DNA from: a bacterium
GTDB lineage: Bacteria > JAMOTN01
NCBI GenBank assembly: GCA_027062325.1
Contig: JAMOTN010000029.1
Location: 1 to 43,893 of the forward strand
Direction of reading: 5' to 3'
DNA length: 43,893 nt
Shown here in pieces: positions 15,626 to 43,893 of the stretch. Below the pieces are notes generated by a model that ran no database searches, was not told the DNA's origin, and was given only the letters and a program-made list of their open reading frames with translations. The position numbers were made by a program, and so were the translations under genes. The first letter of the stretch is position 1. The number at the start of each line of letters is the position of its first letter.

Positions 15626-16960
15626 GTGAATCAAAACAAGTTCCATAGCATTAAAGTAGCAATAATAACTTTTGGTTGCCAAGCAAATGTCTTTAACGCC
15701 TCACAATTGAAAACACTTCTCTTAAGCTCAGGATTCGAAATTGTGGACGAACAAATAGCTAACGTGGGAATAGTCATATCTTGTGCTGTCCGTAAAAAAC
15801 CAGAAGATATAGCACTAGCAACTGCTCAAAAGCTTGCCTCTTCCGGCAAATTAGCCATATTAACTGGCTGCGCTCCACACTTTGTAAAAGACAGAATTTC
15901 GCCCGACAGTAACATTATCCTTGTTCCCATAACCGAGATGTACAAAATACCAAATTTAATTCGCACATATTATATGAAAAGTGAAAATCTAGATAACAGT
16001 GCTTTTCTCCTAAACACAGAATCTTTGACTGAACCAAAGCTAAATATCTACACTCCAGAAGAATTTCCTTCAGCTTTTGTAGCAATTTCTGAAGGATGCA
16101 ATAATTTCTGCTCATACTGTGCCGTTCCTTTTGCAAGGAGCCGTGAGCGCAGTGTTAAGCCTGACGAAATTTGCAAATTCATCGAAAAACTCGCTTCTAG
16201 CGGGTACAAGCTCATAACAATAATTGGTCAAAACGTCAATTCTTACGGAAAAGACATAGGCTATTCATTTCTTAAATTGTTAAAAGACATTGACTCCATA
16301 CCCCAAAATTTTTGGTGTTTTTTTACAACATCTCATCCCAAAGACCTATCTCTAGAAGTTGTAGATTTTGTAATGAATTCTAGAAAGATCGGACGCTGGT
16401 TCCATCTCCCTCTTCAAAGCGCAAGCAATAGAATTCTCTCCAAGATGAATCGCCCCTATACTTTTGAAAAGTACTTAGAGATTGTAAATTATATAAAGGA
16501 GCTGGATAAAAACAACTTTGCAACTATAACCACAGACTTGATGGTTGGTTTCCCAACAGAAACAGAAGACGACTTCACAAAAACCTTGGAAGCAGTAAAA
16601 ATTATAGGATTCGATGGAGCTTATACCTACTACTATCAAGAAAGGGCAGGCACATTCGCAACGCGCCTTCCTCAACTTCCTATTGAGCTGAGAAAAAAAC
16701 GCCTCGAAAAACTCGTAGAAACTGTAATGACACTTTCTAAACAACAGAGCAAGCGTTTTCTCAATCGTTCATTCGAAGTAATTATTGAAAAGAAAGCTAA
16801 AAAAGGCGGATGGCAAGCTAGAATGTTCAATAATAAAGTTGTTGTTATAAACAAAAGCCACAACCTACAATTGGATAAAATCGCTCCATCTGATAAAATC
16901 AGCGTTAAGATAACAGACTCAAGAGGCTGGATCTTGTTAGGCATCGTGGAAAAGGAGTGA
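15626..16960 (+). CDS. miaB: tRNA methylthiotransferase MiaB (radical SAM + TRAM)
   Basis: TFGCQAN, SCAVR, GCNNFCSYCAVP, GQNVNSYG, TDLMVGFPTET. Confidence 0.88.
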   Translation: MNQNKFHSIKVAIITFGCQANVFNASQLKTLLLSSGFEIVDEQIANVGIVISCAVRKKPEDIALATAQKLASSGKLAILTGCAPHFVKDRISPDSNIILVPITEMYKIPNLIRTYYMKSENLDNSAFLLNTESLTEPKLNIYTPEEFPSAFVAISEGCNNFCSYCAVPFARSRERSVKPDEICKFIEKLASSGYKLITIIGQNVNSYGKDIGYSFLKLLKDIDSIPQNFWCFFTTSHPKDLSLEVVDFVMNSRKIGRWFHLPLQSASNRILSKMNRPYTFEKYLEIVNYIKELDKNNFATITTDLMVGFPTETEDDFTKTLEAVKIIGFDGAYTYYYQERAGTFATRLPQLPIELRKKRLEKLVETVMTLSKQQSKRFLNRSFEVIIEKKAKKGGWQARMFNNKVVVINKSHNLQLDKIAPSDKISVKITDSRGWILLGIVEKE

Positions 16961-34638: not shown

Positions 34639-34959
34639 ATGAAAATATCCCTTTATGAATTTATAGAGAAGTTATTCAACTCAGAATTCAAACTCACTGT
34701 CGTATTCAAAGGTGAAAACGAAGAAAACACCTATTACGCTTTCGTTCACAACAGAAAAAATATACTCATACCCGTTACCAAACTTCCAAAATTATTTGTC
34801 GAAGCTTTCGAATATTTCTTAGAATTTAGAGGACTTGAAGAACCACCAAATCCAATTTTAGACCTAGCCGATTACTTTCAATTCGTAGTAGAAGAATTCA
34901 AAATAAAAAATGTCCCAATTTACGCAGAGATGCAGCTCATCTATCCCGACAAAACGTAA
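34639..34959 (+). CDS. Hypothetical protein (106 aa)
   Basis: GGGGGTGG RBS; co-oriented with the Cys-rich ORF. Confidence 0.65.
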   Translation: MKISLYEFIEKLFNSEFKLTVVFKGENEENTYYAFVHNRKNILIPVTKLPKLFVEAFEYFLEFRGLEEPPNPILDLADYFQFVVEEFKIKNVPIYAEMQLIYPDKT

Positions 34960-36175
34960 GAACAATCTCGTACTTATCATTGCTACTAACATAGTTCAAG
35001 AGGTGAACCACTAATTCTGTCTTATATTTTACCATTAAAGCACTATTTACCCCGTGCAACTCTTTCCACAAACCAGCAACAAACCATCCACCTAAGTATA
35101 CTGCACCATCAACTCCAAGCATCAAATGAACAGTTTGCACTCTATTATTTCCTAAAATGCCTTTTATTAATTCACTCAATTCGTTAAAATACTTTGGAAA
35201 ATTTTTCAGGCAGCTTTCATGTAAAGCATCGCCACTTTCAAACCTGTAAATTTTCACATTTTCCTCTGGAAAACCATCTGGTGGGACATAAGCATTCATA
35301 CCTACCTTCTTATCACCATCTCCCCCAAAATAAACCCCAACAGGCTTTTTTTGTACTATACTAGGGTTAACACTCTTTCTCTCTTTTGACCTTAAAAGAA
35401 TAAACAACTCGTTCCTTTCAAACTTAACTAAAAATTTACCTATCCACTCCAACAAAAAATTCAATTTGACCCCTTTTCTCACTGTCCATTCATAAGTTTT
35501 TGTAAAATAAGTTAAAAGCGAAATGAATCTTCTTTCTTCTATTTTTCTACATTCAGGCAACTTTTTTAACAACTCAGCTTTCTTCTCATCGTGAGCTCTC
35601 TTCAAATACCCATCCTTTAAAACCCCTGTAAAGGCAAACTCTTCTAAATCTTCTCTTACTTCCAAACCTAAATTCTCAAAAATCGCAGAAACAAATCCTA
35701 TCAAAAATGCCAAATTCCATGACATACCTGTCAGTATCTTATGCAAACCAATATCAGTCAATTCAAATCCTAAAATCAACTCCATTTCTAACTCTTCAAA
35801 ATAATTGCTTTTTAAAACATCTATCCAAACCCTCTTATATCCCTTTTCCCTAAATAAAACTTTCTCCAATTCATCTCTTAACTTTTCCAGACCTCCCTCA
35901 AGCTCTTTTAACCATGAAAGTTTCTCTTTTCCTACATTAATTTTTTCTAAAATTCGCCCCAACTCTTTCTTATTGGCAACATTAAAAACCCATATCTTGT
36001 AAATATCCAACTCTTCATCCACAATTACTGGAAAATTCACCTTAGTAATACAGTTAGTCTCTAAAAAATCTATAAAATCTGCCCTCTCAGCTTTAAGTTT
36101 CCACAAACCGCCATTTTTAATCTTACCAGTAGTAAAATCACATTTCCATTCAAGGAAAATTAATCCACGTTCCAT
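34937..36175 (-). CDS. Lon-type protease domain plus SAVED/CARF-like lobe (CalpL-like)
   Basis: TGMS152WNLA...FAFTGVLKDG...EKK199AE Ser-Lys dyad pattern; C-terminal VHLMLGV...LNYVSSNDKYEIVL resembles a SAVED C-lobe; CRISPR context. Confidence 0.65.
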   Translation of the reverse strand: MERGLIFLEWKCDFTTGKIKNGGLWKLKAERADFIDFLETNCITKVNFPVIVDEELDIYKIWVFNVANKKELGRILEKINVGKEKLSWLKELEGGLEKLRDELEKVLFREKGYKRVWIDVLKSNYFEELEMELILGFELTDIGLHKILTGMSWNLAFLIGFVSAIFENLGLEVREDLEEFAFTGVLKDGYLKRAHDEKKAELLKKLPECRKIEERRFISLLTYFTKTYEWTVRKGVKLNFLLEWIGKFLVKFERNELFILLRSKERKSVNPSIVQKKPVGVYFGGDGDKKVGMNAYVPPDGFPEENVKIYRFESGDALHESCLKNFPKYFNELSELIKGILGNNRVQTVHLMLGVDGAVYLGGWFVAGLWKELHGVNSALMVKYKTELVVHLLNYVSSNDKYEIVLTFCRDR

Positions 36176-36194
36176 CTCTATACCTCATAAATCC

Positions 36195-37226
36195 CTATAC
36201 TTCTTCAATATCAATCACAACTTCCCCTGCCTTCATAAGAGCAAACATAACTTTTAGTTCTTCTCCTTTTTGGGCATCTCCTTTATTATCTAAAATCAAT
36301 GGTAACATATCAATCTCAAACTCTAATTCATCTCTTTGATTATTCCTCTTGTTAATAAAAACCAACTTATATTTTCTTCCTCTCTCAAGTTTTTCCATAA
36401 CTTCGTCTAATATATCAATAAACAAACTAACCTTTTCTTTATACTCAACTAATTTAACCATCACCTTTTCAAATTTTTTAACTTTTTCTGGTCCTTCTGC
36501 AGCAGCCGCTAACACTATCCGTTCCTGTGGAGGACATAAGTAACTCTTTAAAACTTCATAAACTTTATTTAATACAATAACTTGAGCAGATTTACCCGAT
36601 AAAACAACCTGCTCTTTTTTTTTAACATCTGCAATTTCTAATAATTCGTCGAAATACACCAATTTCCAATTTATTTCAGCTAAGATTGATCTAACTTCTA
36701 ACCGAAAGTCTCCTTTTTTAAGGTACGGTATGCCCCGAGACAGAATAAAATGTTTTAGATCTACTGATAAAATTAAATTTGAAGCTTCTCCAACTCCTGT
36801 TAATTTTTTTATTACTTCCGCCACCTCTTCAGGAACATAAGAAACTAAATAGCAAATTTTCCTTATCGAATTCAAACTTAACGTGCAGACAGCATCTGTA
36901 AATACTGCCCACACTCCTCCTTTCATATCTCTTACCACCCAATCCTGCATATCCGCAAGAATGTGATATTTACTCACAAGCACCACATCTGCCATTTCTC
37001 CATCTTCATCTAATATCAAAATCCCAAAATCCTCAGCCCCCTCGAATACATATAAATCTCCTTCCGAAAAAATTACTGGATAATTTTTCTTCTCCTTCTC
37101 ATTTAACACTTCTAAATATTTTCCTTCAAACATTTCTTTCAAACTTCGTGCTTTTTCTAATATTTCCTCCTCATTATATTTTCCTAATATTTCCTCAACC
37201 TTTCTCTTTAATGCTTCCAACTTCAT
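36195..37226 (-). CDS. Putative anti-sigma factor/protease target (CalpT-like)
   Basis: EGDLYVF...VVLVSKYHILADMQDWVV...YLVSYVPEE resembles a MazF/PemK-like fold; LAAAAE linker; between sigma and protease genes. Confidence 0.55.
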   Translation of the reverse strand: MKLEALKRKVEEILGKYNEEEILEKARSLKEMFEGKYLEVLNEKEKKNYPVIFSEGDLYVFEGAEDFGILILDEDGEMADVVLVSKYHILADMQDWVVRDMKGGVWAVFTDAVCTLSLNSIRKICYLVSYVPEEVAEVIKKLTGVGEASNLILSVDLKHFILSRGIPYLKKGDFRLEVRSILAEINWKLVYFDELLEIADVKKKEQVVLSGKSAQVIVLNKVYEVLKSYLCPPQERIVLAAAAEGPEKVKKFEKVMVKLVEYKEKVSLFIDILDEVMEKLERGRKYKLVFINKRNNQRDELEFEIDMLPLILDNKGDAQKGEELKVMFALMKAGEVVIDIEEV

Positions 37227-37278
37227 CGCTGACCCCTCCCTGCTTAGTAGTTTGTCTTAAAGCTTCTCCATTTTGTAG

Positions 37279-37305
37279 GACCTATGTAACTACCTTCTTG
37301 TGACA
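37279..37305 (-). promoter_or_regulatory. Candidate ECF-type promoter 2: TGTCACA-N16-GGTC
   Basis: Overlaps the sigma gene stop and points at the CalpT-like gene about 50 nt downstream. Confidence 0.55.
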
Positions 37306-38136
37306 AAACAATTTTTTAATTTTTTCCCAGCACAACTTCGCACTTTCAAACTCCAACTTATCTAACTCTTCTTTGGCAATTTCTTGCATCTCCTCACTAC
37401 ACAAATACAAAGCAATTAAACATTCCTCGACTACTTCAGATAATTCTTCTTCTGCTAAGAAAAACTCTTTCCATTCTTCTTCAACAGTTTTCCAAAACTC
37501 CTTTAACTTTTTCTCAGCTCTTGACTTCTGCTTTCTAGCAACCGCAGGCATAGAAAATTTATAAATTTCTCTGCACTCATCAACAACACTGTGAATACCT
37601 CTCACAATATTTTTTAACATCGTCCAAAACATTCCTACCAATTCAGCAGGAGTAAAATTTAGGAACTTTTTCATCTCTTCAATAAATGCTTCATAGTAAT
37701 CAAGCTGAGGAATAGAAAACTTCTTATTCAAATTCTCTAATTTCTCAATATCCAACTTTTCATTATCATCCAAACTATCAATCTGTAGCTGATACTTTTT
37801 CTTCTCTTCTTCCAAATAGCTTGACCAACTATGAATAACAGTGGTTTTGAAATAATTATAATATTTACCCCACTCTCCAGATTTCGGATCAAATGCCAAG
37901 GTTTTATTTTTCATTGCTTTCTCAATTTTATGCAAGTACTTATCAATAAAATCCTCTATTATTAAGAATGGCAAATCTGGAAATTTTTTTCTGATAATTT
38001 TAACCATAATTTTTTCAACACTATTTTGCAACTCTGCTACTGCCTTCAGACTAACACCAGCATTTTCATCATGCAAAATCCTAAAATAATAGTAGAGTAC
38101 ATGAGCCGGAGTTTCCTTCCTATTCACTGTAATCAC
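37282..38136 (-). CDS. Divergent sigma70/ECF-like factor (CalpS-like)
   Basis: Region 2-like FDPKSG..YYNYFKTTVIHSWSSYLEEEKK..IDSLDD; region 4-like end VARKQKSRAEKKLKEF. Confidence 0.65.
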   Translation of the reverse strand: MITVNRKETPAHVLYYYFRILHDENAGVSLKAVAELQNSVEKIMVKIIRKKFPDLPFLIIEDFIDKYLHKIEKAMKNKTLAFDPKSGEWGKYYNYFKTTVIHSWSSYLEEEKKKYQLQIDSLDDNEKLDIEKLENLNKKFSIPQLDYYEAFIEEMKKFLNFTPAELVGMFWTMLKNIVRGIHSVVDECREIYKFSMPAVARKQKSRAEKKLKEFWKTVEEEWKEFFLAEEELSEVVEECLIALYLCSEEMQEIAKEELDKLEFESAKLCWEKIKKLFCHKKVVT

Positions 38137-38155
38137 TCCTTCAAAATAGTACTAT

Positions 38156-38827
38156 TTATTCAACAGCTAAAACTCTCTCAATAAACTTCAAAGCTTCCCT
38201 TCTCCCTCCAAACATTTTTATCAAATCAACTCCATGTTTTCTCGCGCATTCTCTAAATACGCTTTCACTTTTTCTAATATAATTCCAATATCTACTATTC
38301 AAGTAAATTTTCCTCACCCTTTTCTTTTTAGGATTAATTCCTATGTAACTAGCATTTTCCATCAAATACTCCCTACATTCTCCCTCAATACTAACCATAT
38401 CCCATTTAACAGATAAAAGATCAATTTTCAAATTTTTTACTCCTAGAAATTTAGGATAACTTGTAAGAAACAGTAATCGCTCTCCTTTTAAAAACCTCCA
38501 CCTTAAAACTGGTCGCCTGTCTTTATTCCCTAACCATCTCTCTACAACCTCTCTCAACTCTTGAGGCAAATTTTTATCAAACCTCCAGAAAATCTTATTT
38601 TTCAAATACCCAAACGTCACTGTTGAATTTTTCTCAACAATTCTAATAATCTCATCATCTGACATCTTTTTCTTAAACTTAAACTTTCTCCTATTCCTAA
38701 ATTTAACATTCCTTTTATTCTTACTTCTCTTAGTAGTTTCTCCATCCTCACTATCGCCACTTGAGCTAAAAATAAAATAACCAGCCGCCATTAACATCCC
38801 CAAAATTACTCCACCTAAACCGTTCAT
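38156..38827 (-). CDS. Hypothetical basic membrane-anchored protein
   Basis: N-terminal TM, Lys/Arg-rich; GGGGGA RBS; 19 nt upstream of the sigma gene. Confidence 0.65.
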   Translation of the reverse strand: MNGLGGVILGMLMAAGYFIFSSSGDSEDGETTKRSKNKRNVKFRNRRKFKFKKKMSDDEIIRIVEKNSTVTFGYLKNKIFWRFDKNLPQELREVVERWLGNKDRRPVLRWRFLKGERLLFLTSYPKFLGVKNLKIDLLSVKWDMVSIEGECREYLMENASYIGINPKKKRVRKIYLNSRYWNYIRKSESVFRECARKHGVDLIKMFGGRREALKFIERVLAVE

Positions 38828-38887
38828 AACTTATCCCCCCATATTTTCCAACAAAAATTCACTATCTATATTTTACTTCTTTGAAAC

Positions 38888-38914
38888 TGTCACAAAAAAC
38901 AAACCTCCCCCATC
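38888..38914 (+). promoter_or_regulatory. Candidate ECF-type promoter 3: TGTCACA-N16-CATC
   Basis: Same motif and spacing as the other two; followed by AAGGAGGTGGT and ATG at 38951. Confidence 0.6.
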
Positions 38915-38950
38915 TTTCTATAAATACCCCAATTCAAGGAGGTGGTAACA

Positions 38951-39013
38951 ATGATGATCCTCATCTTTTGGATATTTCTTAATTTAAAAAACAAAACAAA
39001 AAACCTCCCTTAA
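38951..39013 (+). CDS. Possible 20-aa peptide MMILIFWIFLNLKNKTKNLP
   Basis: Consensus RBS AAGGAGGT at good spacing; below the ORF-track cutoff. Confidence 0.35.
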   Translation: MMILIFWIFLNLKNKTKNLP

Positions 39014-39037
39014 TCTCACTTATCATCTCCAAAACCT

Positions 39038-39361
39038 CTACGCAATAATACCAGAAAACTTATTCTTAAAGTAATTCTCAACTTTCCTTAAATTTGCCTT
39101 AACTTTATTCAACACTTTGTCTTCAACAGATGTTATAAACAAATTGTCATCCTCATCCAATATTTTCTCAAGCTCTTTTAACACCTTATCAAGTTGCCTC
39201 TTTGACAAGTAACATGCAAACACACTGAACTGAACATCAACACCATACCTTCTAAGTAACTCCAAAATTTTTCTATCCTTTTTAGAATACCTAGTCCTAT
39301 CTTTCGCTCTAATATCATAAGATATGATGTAAATCTTTTTAGAAACCGTCATACATATCAC
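39038..39361 (-). CDS. cas2: CRISPR-associated Cas2 (second copy)
   Basis: YIISYDI...LRRYGVDVQFSVF...DDNLFI. Confidence 0.9.
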   Translation of the reverse strand: MICMTVSKKIYIISYDIRAKDRTRYSKKDRKILELLRRYGVDVQFSVFACYLSKRQLDKVLKELEKILDEDDNLFITSVEDKVLNKVKANLRKVENYFKNKFSGIIA

Positions 39362-39423
39362 TTGTCCTCTTGGTAGTCATAAGACTCCCTTACTAACACA
39401 ACTCTCCCTAAAAATTCATCTTT

Positions 39424-40845
39424 TCACTTTAACACTTCAAGCACATCCTTGTACAAACGCTTCAACTCATTACTCCTATAGTAAAAACCTGCTAAATTAA
39501 GCAAAACGTTCCCAGGAACAACGTAACTAACAAACCAATTAATAAAACTTTTGATCTGACCATTTAAAATTATCCTATAAGAAAACACCTCATCATCTAT
39601 CCAGTTCACTAATTCCTGAGCAAACGAAGAGAAAGTTTTGCTCCCCAACTCTTCCGCCAAGAAAAAGTTTGCTTCCCACAAACTTGAATCACCCTCACTC
39701 CACGAAGGAACATCTAAAAATCTAAATGCCACCATTAAAGCCAAATACTCCAACAAATCATCTCTAAACTCTGTATCCTTTAGCATCTGCTCTATAAATC
39801 CCACAACCAAGATTAGCAATGAAAAGTAAGCAAATCCAAACATATCAAATGCATTAACGTGGAAAAACCAAAGTTCTTTTTTACTCATATCATCGTAATG
39901 ACTCTGTCTAACAACACGTTTAATTTCGTTAACAAATCCTCTTAAAAATCTGTTAATTCCATAAGCCGAAAAAGTACCATTTCCAAGTGTATCCAGCTCC
40001 CCCAAAAACCATTCCAACTCATGTCTAACTTTCAACTCCCACTTAAATAACCCTATCAAATCAGAGCTCTTGTTTAGAGAATGCCTAAAAACTTTATTGT
40101 AACCTCCCCAACTGAACACCTCATCGGAAAACGCAGTATAACACCTACCAATCAACTTTTTATATTCATACTTATATTCATCAAGTATCCTCAACATCTG
40201 CTCTTCAGCAGGAGATAAATTGTGCTTCCCCCTTAAGAACTCGTAAAACGGCTTTCTGTAGTTCGCCCACCACTGCTTACGTATTCTCTCTTTCTCCTTA
40301 GCCCTGCCTCTCTTATCCAAAACCTTTTTCAACTCTCCATAGCTCATTTCATTCCACGTAACTTTAGCAACAATACTCTTTACCCGCCTCAAAAAAGTAT
40401 CAACTTTTTTTCTCATAGGTGTTACTGCCTCAGTCAAACTTCTGAACAAATCCGCTATATTTGGAGTTTTTAATCTATCAAGCATAAACATGTAATTTAA
40501 GCAATCAAAATTCACACAGTAGTTGTAAAACTCCCTCGCCAAATCAACGTTCTGCTTCAAAAAAGCATTTTTTAACTCTTCACGTTCTCTGCTGCTCACC
40601 CTCCTACTAATAGGAGTTACACGCTTAAATAATCCCAAGCAATTTCCAGCAAATTCCCACCTAGCATCAACTTCCCAAAAAACATCATCCGTCAGCCTAA
40701 ATTTATACTTTCCATCATCTCTTTTAACCAATAAACGTTCTATTTGCGGCACTACAATTTTGACAGTTCGAGGTTTAGTTCTTTTCTTACGATTTATAAG
40801 AACTCCAGCAACTTTTCCTAGAAACTCCAATATTCCCATTCTCAT
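39424..40845 (-). CDS. Highly diverged, probably inactive Cas1 paralogue
   Basis: Collinear by-eye matches to Cas1: IVVPQIERLLV, DLAREF..NYMFML, FLRGFVNE (cf. LRGYEG), VNAFDMFGFAY (cf. LNLFFNYAY), DDLLE (cf. SDIME), YRIILNGQI; His loop absent; flanked by two cas2 genes. Confidence 0.55.
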   Translation of the reverse strand: MRMGILEFLGKVAGVLINRKKRTKPRTVKIVVPQIERLLVKRDDGKYKFRLTDDVFWEVDARWEFAGNCLGLFKRVTPISRRVSSREREELKNAFLKQNVDLAREFYNYCVNFDCLNYMFMLDRLKTPNIADLFRSLTEAVTPMRKKVDTFLRRVKSIVAKVTWNEMSYGELKKVLDKRGRAKEKERIRKQWWANYRKPFYEFLRGKHNLSPAEEQMLRILDEYKYEYKKLIGRCYTAFSDEVFSWGGYNKVFRHSLNKSSDLIGLFKWELKVRHELEWFLGELDTLGNGTFSAYGINRFLRGFVNEIKRVVRQSHYDDMSKKELWFFHVNAFDMFGFAYFSLLILVVGFIEQMLKDTEFRDDLLEYLALMVAFRFLDVPSWSEGDSSLWEANFFLAEELGSKTFSSFAQELVNWIDDEVFSYRIILNGQIKSFINWFVSYVVPGNVLLNLAGFYYRSNELKRLYKDVLEVLK

Positions 40846-40889
40846 CTCTTCCTAAATCAACATATACCCCTTGACTATACAAACATTTC

Positions 40890-41153
40890 TTAAACTATCA
40901 TCCATCTAAAAAATTTTCTATTTCCCAAATAAATTCGCCCCTTGCAATCATTATCAGTTTGGGGAATAAAAAGCAACCTATCCCCTTTATTCAAAAGCTG
41001 AGAACAATCCCAATACAAATCATTCACTTTCTTAAAAGGGATTTCTATTTCAAAAATACTGTATTGAATCCTACAACCGTATTTTAAGAGCAAAGCAGAA
41101 ATTTTCCTCCTAATTTTATCATCTGAAATATCAAAAGCCACTAACCACTTCAT
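40890..41153 (-). CDS. cas2: CRISPR-associated Cas2 (first copy)
   Basis: WLVAFDISDDKIRRKI...YGCRIQYSIFE...GDRL. Confidence 0.93.
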   Translation of the reverse strand: MKWLVAFDISDDKIRRKISALLLKYGCRIQYSIFEIEIPFKKVNDLYWDCSQLLNKGDRLLFIPQTDNDCKGRIYLGNRKFFRWMIV

Positions 41154-41187
41154 TTCCAGATACTCCTTTAGTAGTTATATTGGCTCC

Positions 41188-42795
41188 TTAACCATTAACT
41201 TTTCTCTCTCCAAACTTTCTCAATGCTTTTTCAAAGGAGCTTATATCCTCCTTCAAAAATCTCTCCACAATTCTCAATAATCTAAACTCAAACCATTCAG
41301 AAACTACTCGCACCACCAATGAAAAATCCAGATCAAATCTTTCCTTATTCAACAACGCCCTAAGAATTCTTTCAAATTCATCTTCCTCTCTATTCTTCTG
41401 GCCATCCTCTTCGCCATCCTCGGCAGCAACATCTTTAATTACCTGCAATCTCCTAAGCTCTTCCAACAAACTTACCCATATATTATATCTCAAACTTTCC
41501 AACAAACTCTCCAACTTCTCATCCTTGCCATAAAGTGCCGTGTTCAATTCTTTATATTTACTCCTAAAAGGATGCTTTACCTCTTCTGTCCATTCCAAAT
41601 AAAGCTTTAAAATTGAACTCAATACATCAGAATCTCCCAAATCCCCATCTTCCTCACAAGCCTCATTGATAGCAATATCATTTTTAGAACAAGATTCACT
41701 ATTAGAGTTACAATTGCGTCTTTCATTTTTTTCATTATTGCCTACATTTTTACCAGCATCCGTAAATCCTTTCAAAAATCTTTCTAAGTCACCCCTTTTA
41801 TCATCCAAAAACCTATTAAAAACAACGGTATCAAAAACCACATGTTTTATGAGTAGCACACGCACTCTTTCCATAATATCCGACGCTAAAGCATAGTGTC
41901 TCCCCCTCTTTATGTGCATCACACCGAGTGAGGGATTGAAATTTTTTATCAAGAGTATGCAAGTTGTAAGGTTGTATATGAGAGTATATGCATAATTAAA
42001 GAATAGATTTAAGAAATCATTTGACTTCCTGTCACGCCTTTTAAACGCCGGATCCAAACCAAAAGTTCCTAACACATTCTTCATCAAATCAAACATGAAT
42101 ACACTAGCTCTTCCTTCATAACCCCTTAGAGTATTAATCTGCGAATCCAAGACATTTACATAAGTTTCCAGATTCCTAGCTATCCTCTTTTTATAGCTGC
42201 CTAACTCTTTCAAAAAATCATGCAGTCGCTTTTTGGTATTTTTCAACCAATTTAACAATCTAAGTCCATTATATTCACTATCAGCCTCCCCATTCTCATC
42301 AGTCCAGTTTCCATGTTCCGTCTTCACTTTCAAAAACAGTAGTTCTGTTAGCTCAAAAAGACTTACCATTTCCTGAATTTTGTCACGCACTATCTTAATA
42401 ATAAAATTTAATCTCCAGGGTGAGTTAGTCAATAACATTTGAAGTTCTCGTAATTTGTAAGCACTAAAGTAAGAAGACGGTAAAATAACCGACTTTATAC
42501 TCAAATTTCTTCCTACAATTATTACTTTTTTCTCATAGTTCGCTAATAATCCTAAAGCTTGCGTTGTTAATTGAACATTCTGTGAAACTATAAGGTAATC
42601 AATTGCAGCTATTGGAATTTGAATTTTTTCAGGATAAGAACGAGCATCACTAACTCCGCCAATATCAATTTTTTTGCTAATTCCTCCTGTAGAAACAGTA
42701 AGATTAGTAGAAGTTAGTGATGTAAGAACAGAAAAAGGCCGAAACAATAAACTTCCCTTCTCTACTCTCAACTTACCGGGTTTAAGGATTATCAT
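41188..42795 (-). CDS. cas1: CRISPR-associated Cas1, enlarged (535 aa)
   Basis: IPIAAIDYLIV, LTTQALGLL, LRGYEG (E), NYAY, LGVMH (H), LASDIME (D/E). Confidence 0.92.
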   Translation of the reverse strand: MIILKPGKLRVEKGSLLFRPFSVLTSLTSTNLTVSTGGISKKIDIGGVSDARSYPEKIQIPIAAIDYLIVSQNVQLTTQALGLLANYEKKVIIVGRNLSIKSVILPSSYFSAYKLRELQMLLTNSPWRLNFIIKIVRDKIQEMVSLFELTELLFLKVKTEHGNWTDENGEADSEYNGLRLLNWLKNTKKRLHDFLKELGSYKKRIARNLETYVNVLDSQINTLRGYEGRASVFMFDLMKNVLGTFGLDPAFKRRDRKSNDFLNLFFNYAYTLIYNLTTCILLIKNFNPSLGVMHIKRGRHYALASDIMERVRVLLIKHVVFDTVVFNRFLDDKRGDLERFLKGFTDAGKNVGNNEKNERRNCNSNSESCSKNDIAINEACEEDGDLGDSDVLSSILKLYLEWTEEVKHPFRSKYKELNTALYGKDEKLESLLESLRYNIWVSLLEELRRLQVIKDVAAEDGEEDGQKNREEDEFERILRALLNKERFDLDFSLVVRVVSEWFEFRLLRIVERFLKEDISSFEKALRKFGERKVNG

Positions 42796-43223
42796 GATTT
42801 ATATTATAAAATAATATTCGAGATAACGATGGATATATTCTGTTTGTAATCAAAAAATTGATGAGGGGGGAAGTTATAGAAATAAATTTAGGGATATGTA
42901 GCTGAACCGTCTTAATCGAAAAATTAAACGGAACTTTAATATATCTCTAGGTTTTCTATGAGTATTAGTTAAAAGTAGCAGCTGTAAATTGAAATCAACA
43001 TTAATGACAAGAGTAAATACTGCAATAAAGTAGAATAAGAAGAGGGAGCTGTTTAGTGTAAAATTGTTCAAATAATTAAAAATTTTGAAAACGAGGGCTA
43101 TTCAAGAAAGAGCTAATTTGAAGTATACTAATTGTGCAATTTAAAATTTGAAAAAGAAGTGTACAAGCGTCTTCCCCACTAGTGGGTTAAAATTGCCTAT
43201 TCAGAATATATATGATAAGTAGT
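42796..43223 (+). promoter_or_regulatory. AT-rich CRISPR leader / divergent cas promoter region
   Basis: AT-rich gap between cas1 start and the first repeat; candidate sigma70 promoter TTCAAG(43101)-N17-TATACT(43124-43129). Confidence 0.7.
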
Positions 43224-43893
43224 GTTTCATTGCCGAACACTTACTAACGGATTACGACATATATCGCCCTCGTAGAGGGCTACGGAAATTCTCACAGTTT
43301 CATTGCCGAACACTTACTAACGGATTACGACCGAGTTCCCCTCGCTTCGGGTGTCCCCCCTTTGGGTTTCATTGCCGAACACTTACTAACGGATTACGAC
43401 AAACTAAACACTCTAGGTTTTACGGCAAAAGCATTTGTGTTTCATTGCCGAACACTTACTAACGGATTACGACGGGCTCGGGCGGGGTCCCGGGGCTTTT
43501 GCCCCCGCGCGGTTTCATTGCCGAACACTTACTAACGGATTACGACCCCCGACGCCCCAGTTGGGGGTGTTGGGGGCTCGTCGGTTTCATTGCCGAACAC
43601 TTACTAACGGATTACGACCGGTTTCCTTTTTTATGTTCCCTTTTGCAGCTGTGAGAGCCCGGGCCCCGCACCCGAGCTCCCATACGACCGGTTTCCTTTT
43701 TTATGTTCCCTTTTGCAGTTTCTGTTTCATTGCCGAACACTTACTAACGGATTACGACGAGTCTTCGACTCCCTTATTTATTTATAATGAAAAGTTTCAT
43801 TGCCGAACACTTACTAACGGATTACGACGTGAGGTCGCGGCCGCGGTCCTCAGGCCTAAGCCTGAGTTTCATTGCCGAACACTTACTAACGGA
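43224..43893 (+). CRISPR. CRISPR array, 35-nt repeat GTTTCATTGCCGAACACTTACTAACGGATTACGAC, 8 full repeats plus 1 cut by the window edge; type III-like
   Basis: Identical repeats at 43224, 43297, 43366, 43439, 43512, 43584, 43724, 43794, 43866; spacers of 38, 34, 38, 38, 37, 105, 35, 37 nt; 3' end ATTACGAC resembles type III 8-nt handles. Confidence 0.98.

Follow-up and report, generated by a model that had tools for sequence, protein, structure and literature searches.

Hairpin-forming spacers in the CRISPR array of an uncultured bacterium, a possible natural instance of hairpin-biased type III uptake

The DNA analysed here (the window, 43,893 nucleotides (nt) long, the whole of contig C29, GenBank JAMOTN010000029.1 of assembly GCA_027062325.1) ends in a CRISPR array at 43224-43893 on the + strand, several of whose spacers fold into hairpins more strongly than shuffled versions of themselves. 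This excess of structure is real and is carried by two to four spacers. We put at about one half the probability that the array is a natural instance of the hairpin-biased spacer uptake already known from type III CRISPR systems. Native flanks recovered for some spacers show that the spacer borders cut through the source hairpins and not at their feet, and one hairpin-forming spacer sits in the array off register, hinting that the bias exists at uptake.

Spacer folding against shuffled sequences

The array's 35-nt repeat is present in eight intact, identical copies, plus a ninth that the end of the contig truncates, and the unique spacers between them are 34-38 nt long, except for a composite spacer, S6 (43619-43723, 105 nt), which is made up of a spacer (S6c), an insert (S6b) and a 36-nt duplication and brings the total to nine spacers. 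The first-pass annotation of this DNA had described the array and the spacer borders as we find them, and had left S6 unresolved. Its warning that the sample is small also holds: no further copy of the array or of the repeat was found, this genome being the only one of its GTDB order and phylum in the searched collection, and a metagenome scan returned only the window's own contig. The spacers and the parts of S6 are listed here, with X2 and X3 (and X1 below) denoting sequencing runs.

43259-43296, + strand: S1, 47% GC; 6-bp G+C-rich stem over bases 8-22
43332-43365, + strand: S2, 68% GC; 4-bp stem from base 1; p = 0.36 against shuffles
43401-43438, + strand: S3, 34% GC; no hairpin; protospacer in run X3
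43474-43511, + strand: S4, 84% GC; folds no better than its shuffles (p = 0.55, z = 0.03)
43547-43583, + strand: S5, 76% GC; 12-bp stem from base 1, 5-nt loop, 8-nt 3' tail
43613-43648, + strand: 36-nt duplication, copy 1; last 6 nt of repeat 6 and first 30 nt of S6c
43649-43682, - strand: S6b insert, 34 nt, 74% GC; base 1 opens a 13-bp stem (three G-T pairs), 3-nt 3' tail
43683-43718, + strand: 36-nt duplication, copy 2; 100% identical to copy 1
43689-43723, + strand: S6c, intact 35-nt AT-rich spacer; no hairpin
43759-43793, + strand: S7, 29% GC; 5-bp stem from base 1, then a T-rich run; p = 0.09
43829-43865, + strand: S8, 70% GC; two overlapping hairpins; p = 0.13 when folded alone

Each of the nine spacers, which form the entire sample, was compared with 3000 dinucleotide shuffles, taking the better of its two strands and folding with both RNA and DNA parameters. 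Two spacers were individually significant, S5 (p = 0.003, z = -3.11) and S6b (p = 0.0007), and two were marginal, S7 at the value listed above and S1 (p = 0.06, or 0.025 as DNA; also as DNA, z = -2.66 with one of 200 shuffles folding equally well). Fisher combination over all nine gave 3e-4 with RNA and 1e-3 with DNA parameters, and a second folding run agreed. The other spacers (S2, S3, S4, S6c and S8) all had p > 0.1. The apparent hairpins of S2, S4 and S8 are accounted for by their composition, because DNA of 68-84% GC folds whatever its base order; shuffles of S4, for instance, average -19.7 kcal/mol. This serves as a methodological warning that G+C-rich spacers fold regardless of base order. 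A common hairpin family among the spacers was also considered and set aside, as the best pairing, S4 with S6b on the - strand (p = 0.006), was one of 72 comparisons and is not significant.

The two strongest spacers also differ in fold between their strands, in opposite directions. S5 folds better on the + strand by 9.0 kcal/mol (p = 0.004) and S6b on the - strand by 10.9 kcal/mol, with three G-T pairs (p = 0.007); in the remaining spacers the strand difference stays within the shuffle range. Counted without regard to significance, the + strand is better in S4, S5, S7 and S8, the - strand in S2, S3 and S6b, and there is no difference in S1 and S6c. G-T wobbles on the + strand of S4 and S5 had earlier been read as a sign of integration with fixed polarity. 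The pairs themselves are present, two in the S5 stem and two in the + strand fold of S4, but the S4 fold is no better than its shuffles, and since the two informative spacers favour opposite strands, fixed polarity is left unsupported, in line with the orientation-independence published for type III-A uptake. Uptake in either orientation could give such an opposition of S5 and S6b, but S6b lies off register.

Source hairpins, spacer borders and the off-register insert

Run X1, a hydrothermal vent metagenome, carries the leader together with parts of the array and is probably the source sample. In runs X2 and X3, which belong to another study, we found protospacers with non-array flanks for four of the nine spacers: S6b in X2, without a differing letter, and, in X3, S3 (one identical record and one that differs in 2 letters), S7 (identical) and S8 (2 letters different). 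These protospacers show that the spacers were copied from foreign DNA that is still circulating; the best spacer match in the host's own genome is just 16-18 nt long.

We then paired the native flanks with the spacers by hand. With its flanks, S6b becomes the core of a 20-bp stem that closes a 5-nt loop; on the - strand, 17 of its pairs are Watson-Crick and three are G-T. Read on the hairpin strand, this stem reaches 7 nt beyond the start of the spacer and 4 nt beyond its end. S7 extends in the same way to a 9-bp stem, of which four pairs (three Watson-Crick, one G-T) lie upstream of spacer base 1; together with the T-rich run that follows, this hairpin looks like an intrinsic terminator on the + strand. 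The 3' hairpin of S8 has 8 bp and ends 2 nt beyond the spacer, and only the first hairpin of S8 starts where it had been noted, at base 2, without extension by its flank. The mapped flanks thus show where the cuts fell relative to the stems: the borders of S6b, S7 and S8 run through stems and not along their feet, and a start at base 1 is the mark of a longer, truncated stem.

This bears directly on the proposal of the first-pass annotation that the leader-proximal prespacer end is set at the foot of a hairpin. Its base-1 stems in S2, S4, S5 and S7, and the start of S1 at base 8, are reproduced by the minimum-free-energy fold with RNA parameters (four of nine spacers starting at base 1), but S8 starts at base 3 in that fold and S3, whose best pairing starts at base 17, has no hairpin; S6b starts at base 4 and S6c at base 16. 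DNA parameters leave three of nine at base 1 (S2, S5 and S7). Dinucleotide shuffles predict 2.2 base-1 starts where four are observed (tail p = 0.13), and 3.4 starts at base 1 or 2 where again four are observed (p = 0.46). Among 953 random 37-nt windows of the host ribosomal RNA (rRNA) operon, 24% are paired from base 1, as are 31% of those with a GC fraction of at least 0.65 (n = 197); at a rate of 0.28, the probability of at least four in nine is about 0.23. With a shuffle p of 0.13 and a quarter to a third of rRNA windows (24-31%) behaving alike, stem position is not beyond chance, and the rule fails at the borders as well, since the stems of S7, S6b and S8 run past the spacer ends. Mapping the protospacer flanks, which had been suggested for locating the cut sites, places the borders inside the stems. 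A second methodological warning follows, namely that folding spacers on their own makes stems cut by a border seem to start at base 1.

The composite spacer S6 supplies further evidence on uptake. The borders of the S6b insert coincide with those of its exact protospacer in run X2, and the insert is flanked by the two identical 36-nt copies. A 100-nt contig of run X1 covers 43619-43718 and thereby bridges the second S6 junction; it reaches 30 letters to the left of the first, one short of our bar for bridging. From the sequence, S6 is best explained as a single integration event at sites displaced rightwards by 29-30 nt, which would have duplicated 36 bp in place of the 35-bp repeat; the alternative would need a duplicated spacer plus two independent deletions. 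S6b would then be one of the rare traces left in vivo by an integration that missed its target, and its target duplication, of 36 bp, can be measured. As it lies off register, with no proper repeat on either side, S6b cannot have been selected for interference, and this is a hint that the hairpin bias exists at uptake, without interference. Promiscuous integration of a comparable kind is reported in vitro for the type III-A Cas1-Cas2 of Thermotoga profunda acting alone (PMC13769266), and the S6 event fits it. As described there, that organism is also a thermophile, and the repeat of its array 2/3 likewise starts with GTTTC and ends with GAC (PMC13769266); the present case differs in being the fossil of an event in vivo, whose 36-bp duplication lies 29 nt off the repeat.

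The surroundings of the protospacers give some indication of where the spacers came from. Around S8, A and T letters fall 15/6/3 by codon phase over 98 nt (counted by hand) at about 75% GC, which points to coding DNA from a replicon with that GC content, and the corresponding counts around S6b (12/7/7, also by hand) suggest non-coding DNA. S7 lies between a flank of 76% GC and one of 20%. Taken together with the spacers, we infer sources that are foreign and mostly far more G+C-rich than the 38% GC host. No shared flank motif (protospacer-adjacent motif, PAM) was seen among the three 5' and four 3' flanks, a number too small for the purpose.

Searches of sequence collections added little to this picture. 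The spacers showed no similarity to the host rRNA operon beyond that of shuffles and no Rfam match at E values up to 10, and blastn with the whole array gave chance-level results against reference phages (17 records, best E 0.7) and reference plasmids (13 records, best E 0.2). One candidate, a match of 24 of 25 letters between S5 (43558-43582) and a non-coding stretch (290-314) of a river-water microvirus (E 0.7), is probably chance; we treat it so because the 5' arm of S5 is uncovered and a scan for the motif in viral sequences found 0 copies. The collection scans with individual spacers covered S1, S3, S4, S5, S6b, S7 and S8: exact scans of IMG/VR viral contigs gave 0 matches for S6b, S7, S3, S5, S1 and S4, neither S8 nor a 28-nt core of S6b had a match in GTDB genome contigs, and S6b with up to three mismatches gave 0 in 400 other genomes.

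Contigs identical to 42764-43047 of the window occur in runs X2 and X3, which yielded no contig for the stretch 43048-43223 and none for the repeats. The host itself or a close relative is therefore present there too, possibly a relative in which the leader-proximal part or the array differs.

Explanations for the hairpin excess

Uptake of this kind has been described in the laboratory. The type III-A Cas1-Cas2 of Streptococcus thermophilus, which works without a reverse transcriptase (RT), is reported to use no PAM, to show no orientation bias and to prefer hairpin-forming DNA (PMC8860593; Zhang, Garrett, Graveley, Terns, NAR 2022), its preferred sources being single-strand origins, the transfer origin (oriT), attenuators and terminators, and rRNA and tRNA genes (PMC8860593). 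A preference of RT-less type III-A Cas1-Cas2 for DNA able to fold into hairpins when single-stranded is likewise the message of PMC8860593 and PMC13575424, the latter a 2026 paper which again puts forward the stems of hairpins on displaced single strands as substrates that may be used directly, and the type III-A system of S. epidermidis is reported to sample rRNA and tRNA loci (PMC8860600). Hairpin-biased, PAM-free and orientation-free type III-A uptake is already published, and the enrichment found here is real and fits this known kind: hairpins are over-represented in the sense of PMC8860593 (Fisher p = 3e-4), and native flanks, paired by hand, lengthen the stems.

The likeness to the S. 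thermophilus case as reported extends to an RT-less Cas1-Cas2 in a Csm-bearing genome, and to imperfect palindromes that include a terminator-like hairpin, and may extend to the lack of a shared flank motif and to hairpins on either strand (PMC8860593). In contrast to that assay, we are dealing with a natural nine-spacer array of an uncultured vent bacterium, with a Cas1 of 535 residues that has no close relative and with targets mostly of 68-84% GC in a 38% GC host, and the bias is deduced from folding statistics and four mapped protospacers. The sampling of structured, highly transcribed DNA by type III Cas1-Cas2 is also comparable, but the spacers here match neither the host rRNA operon nor Rfam families, and three of them (74-84% GC) are richer in G+C than almost any host rRNA window. 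If the analogy holds, the result suggests that a bias shown in the laboratory for firmicutes leaves a visible trace in the natural array of a very distant thermophilic lineage, represented in the searched collection by the only genome of its GTDB phylum.

In the explanation that we favour, the portion of the array in the window would be leader-proximal, and the adjacent cas1 and cas2 would be its only adaptation genes. The hairpins of S6b and S7, shown through their flanks, and probably those of S5 and S1 would be real hairpins belonging to the source, either stems that are long and imperfect and carry G-T pairs on one strand, or stems resembling terminators. By analogy with S. thermophilus, an RT-less type III Cas1-Cas2 would preferentially sample DNA that folds into hairpins when transiently single-stranded, with single-strand origins, transfer origins, attenuators, terminators and structural RNA genes as candidate source elements, and uptake would proceed without a PAM and in either orientation, as was shown experimentally in that organism. 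The array most likely feeds type III (Csm) effectors encoded elsewhere in the genome, because there is a single cas1, no Cas3 core passed its cut-off and the recognisable effectors are all type III. The suggestion of the first-pass annotation that a single-stranded, hairpin-forming substrate is involved survives in this form, given the real enrichment of hairpins and the published preference for single-stranded DNA hairpins; its RNA variant is unlikely.

A more specific version of this explanation, in which the prespacer is the loop-proximal tip of a long imperfect hairpin on single-stranded foreign DNA and is taken directly by Cas1-Cas2, we regard as improbable. S5 and S6b are alike on their favoured strands in that the 5' end is paired and the 3' tail is short (12 bp with 8 nt, and 13 bp with 3 nt), and pairing by hand indicates that S6b left its 20-bp stem through two cuts with a stagger of 3 nt. 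If it were true, it would constitute the first natural cut-site evidence for the proposal of the Terns laboratory, as put forward in PMC13575424, that hairpins are direct substrates.

Several points weigh against hairpin-biased type III uptake as an account of this array. Only two of the nine spacers reach p < 0.01 and five fold no better than their shuffles, and terminators and hairpins resembling repetitive extragenic palindromes (REP) may be common enough in a high-GC source for two to four of nine spacers to be drawn without bias. The flank pairings were made by hand on consensus ends of 29-30 letters and were not computed, that X2 and X3 are DNA libraries is a guess, and no source replicon was recovered from the phage, plasmid, viral or genome searches. 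The link between the array and type III interference is one of co-occurrence in a single genome that is 84% complete and in 81 contigs, with the effectors on other contigs; five open reading frames (ORFs) without a family around cas2 (473, 223, 284, 343 and 412 residues) could belong to another system; and the Cas1 is very distant from any studied Cas1, so that the carry-over from S. thermophilus is by analogy.

The chief competitor supposes no uptake bias at all: the spacers would come from a very G+C-rich foreign genome or element in which any 35-nt piece folds, and the true hairpins would be chance draws from a source where intergenic terminators and REP-like palindromes are frequent. S2, S4 and S8, which fold like their own shuffles, sit well with this, as does S8 with its codon phases and about 75% GC, suggestive of ordinary coding DNA of a high-GC replicon. 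S5 and S6b, however, beat shuffles that keep their dinucleotides, S6b is the core of a 20-bp native stem, and even the AT-rich S7 lies on a hairpin. In most genomes only a few percent of the sequence lies in long hairpins, so that two to four of nine spacers on hairpins is a lot, and we consider chance drawing unlikely, though it deserves more credit than any of the remaining alternatives. Unbiased uptake followed by selection would place the bias after integration, with CRISPR RNAs (crRNAs) kept when they target structured, conserved and highly expressed RNAs or the 3' ends of transcripts, and could explain a uniform sense strand with no need for polar integration. Most crRNAs encoded by natural type III arrays are reported to be functional and antisense (PMC8860593), and S7 does cover a terminator-like hairpin; against this, the strongest hairpin, S6b, is the one without a proper repeat, and the strands are mixed. 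Stable hairpins in a target should, moreover, hinder pairing of the crRNA, and we hold selection to be quite improbable.

That a hairpin's foot, on single-stranded DNA or RNA, sets the leader-proximal prespacer end and that polarity is fixed, as the first-pass annotation proposed, is in our view very unlikely. The four base-1 folds, the better + strand in S4, S5, S7 and S8 and the first hairpin of S8, which its flank does not extend, can be read in its favour, but the base-1 count is within chance of the shuffles (four against 2.2, p = 0.13), 24-31% of rRNA windows start likewise, stems continue past the border in S7, in S6b and at the 3' end of S8, the G-T strand of S6b is opposite to that of S5, the - strand is better in S2, S3 and S6b, and no RT was found. 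Reverse transcription of structured RNA, finally, is known from RT-Cas1 systems, such as the type III-B system of Marinomonas mediterranea, for which acquisition from RNA is reported (PMC5576922), and together with the Cas6-RT-Cas1 structure 7kft these share with the present case a type III context and a proposed single-stranded substrate. G-T (G-U) pairs on one strand would suggest structure at the RNA level, and the best sequence match of the Cas1 in the PDB is indeed a Cas6-RT-Cas1 chain, barely above plain Cas1 chains (E 3.1e-6 against 6.1e-6). What sets the present system apart is that no RT was found: no RVT_1 domain was detected in Cas1 or its neighbours and PF00078 was not found in the 84%-complete genome, agreeing with the earlier remark that no reverse transcriptase is visible, and the spacers match neither an Rfam family nor the host rRNA operon. 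The negative RT search makes an RNA substrate unlikely, and this route we judge extremely improbable.

Adaptation genes, leader and host genome

The following features lie beside the array or elsewhere in the genome (1.65 Mb in 81 contigs, 38% GC).

39038-39361, - strand: cas2, 107 residues (PF09827, E 2.6e-15; TIGR01573; PADLOC Cas2b, E 3e-19)
39424-40845, - strand: orphan ORF of 473 residues between cas1 and cas2
41188-42795, - strand: cas1, 535 residues (PF01867, E 1.7e-28; TIGR00287, E 4e-26; PADLOC Cas1, E 1e-32, residues 56-324)
42796-43223, + strand: probable leader, AT-rich, about 430 nt from cas1 to repeat 1
43175-43186: perfect 12-nt palindrome in the presumed leader, 37 nt before repeat 1
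Contig C25, about 22.3-30.1 kb: type III genes, namely Csm3 (E 3.5e-53), Cas10/Csm1, Csm4 and a second Csm3-like gene
Contig C49, 1-4212: type III genes, namely an HD-Cas10 of 1161 residues and a cut Csm4
Contig C76, 11264-16593: far end of the array, with a degenerate last repeat at 16560-16588
Contig C76, about 1.2 kb from the far array end: Csx1/Csm6-like ORF of 510 residues (PADLOC CARF+HEPN, weak E 1.6e-5, no Pfam hit)

The cas1 gene is single-copy in the genome. Its product comprises a Cas1 fold (approximately residues 56-352) and an acidic tail, about 180 residues long, at the C terminus, and its best PDB alignments show conserved catalytic-type motifs; a word search returned no relatives. 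The 473-residue ORF has no Pfam, NCBIfam, PADLOC or PHROG family and no usable Atlas hit, and a word search among 5.8 billion proteins found no relative. Four further co-directional ORFs of 223, 284, 343 and 412 residues, within 34937-42795 on the - strand, also lack a Pfam, NCBIfam, PADLOC or PHROG family. Judging from their position, these orphan ORFs around cas2 could be unrecognised cas genes.

The genome holds two separate type III effector sets, on contigs C25 and C49, neither with an assembled array beside it; Cas10 and the RAMP proteins Csm3 and Csm4 are thus present genome-wide but are not encoded next to the array described here. These type III (Csm) genes are the only recognisable effector genes in the genome, in which no Cas3 core was found over the cut-off and no Cas6 was found by PF01881. 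Near the far array end on contig C76, ORFs of 803 and 92 residues have no family.

The array is the only one assembled in the genome, and its repeat, allowing up to three mismatches, is confined within the genome to the contig of the window. Its opposite end forms the end of contig C76, where just 5 nt of the last spacer are present and the last repeat is degenerate at its 3' end (in window orientation). Because of this degenerate last repeat, the AT-rich 430 nt and the repeat termini, which are similar to those of T. profunda type III-A arrays (PMC13769266), the leader would lie on the cas1 side and crRNA would be made from the + strand. The leader palindrome could be a protein-binding site for integration, and promoter-like sites on the + strand of the leader, at 43118-43147 and 43187-43216, are consensus matches only.

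The host itself looks like a deep-branching thermophile from a hydrothermal vent. Its rRNA operon (contig C25, 34-4835) has 60% GC compared to 38% genome-wide, and its coding strands are strongly purine-skewed, with GC skew down to -0.54.

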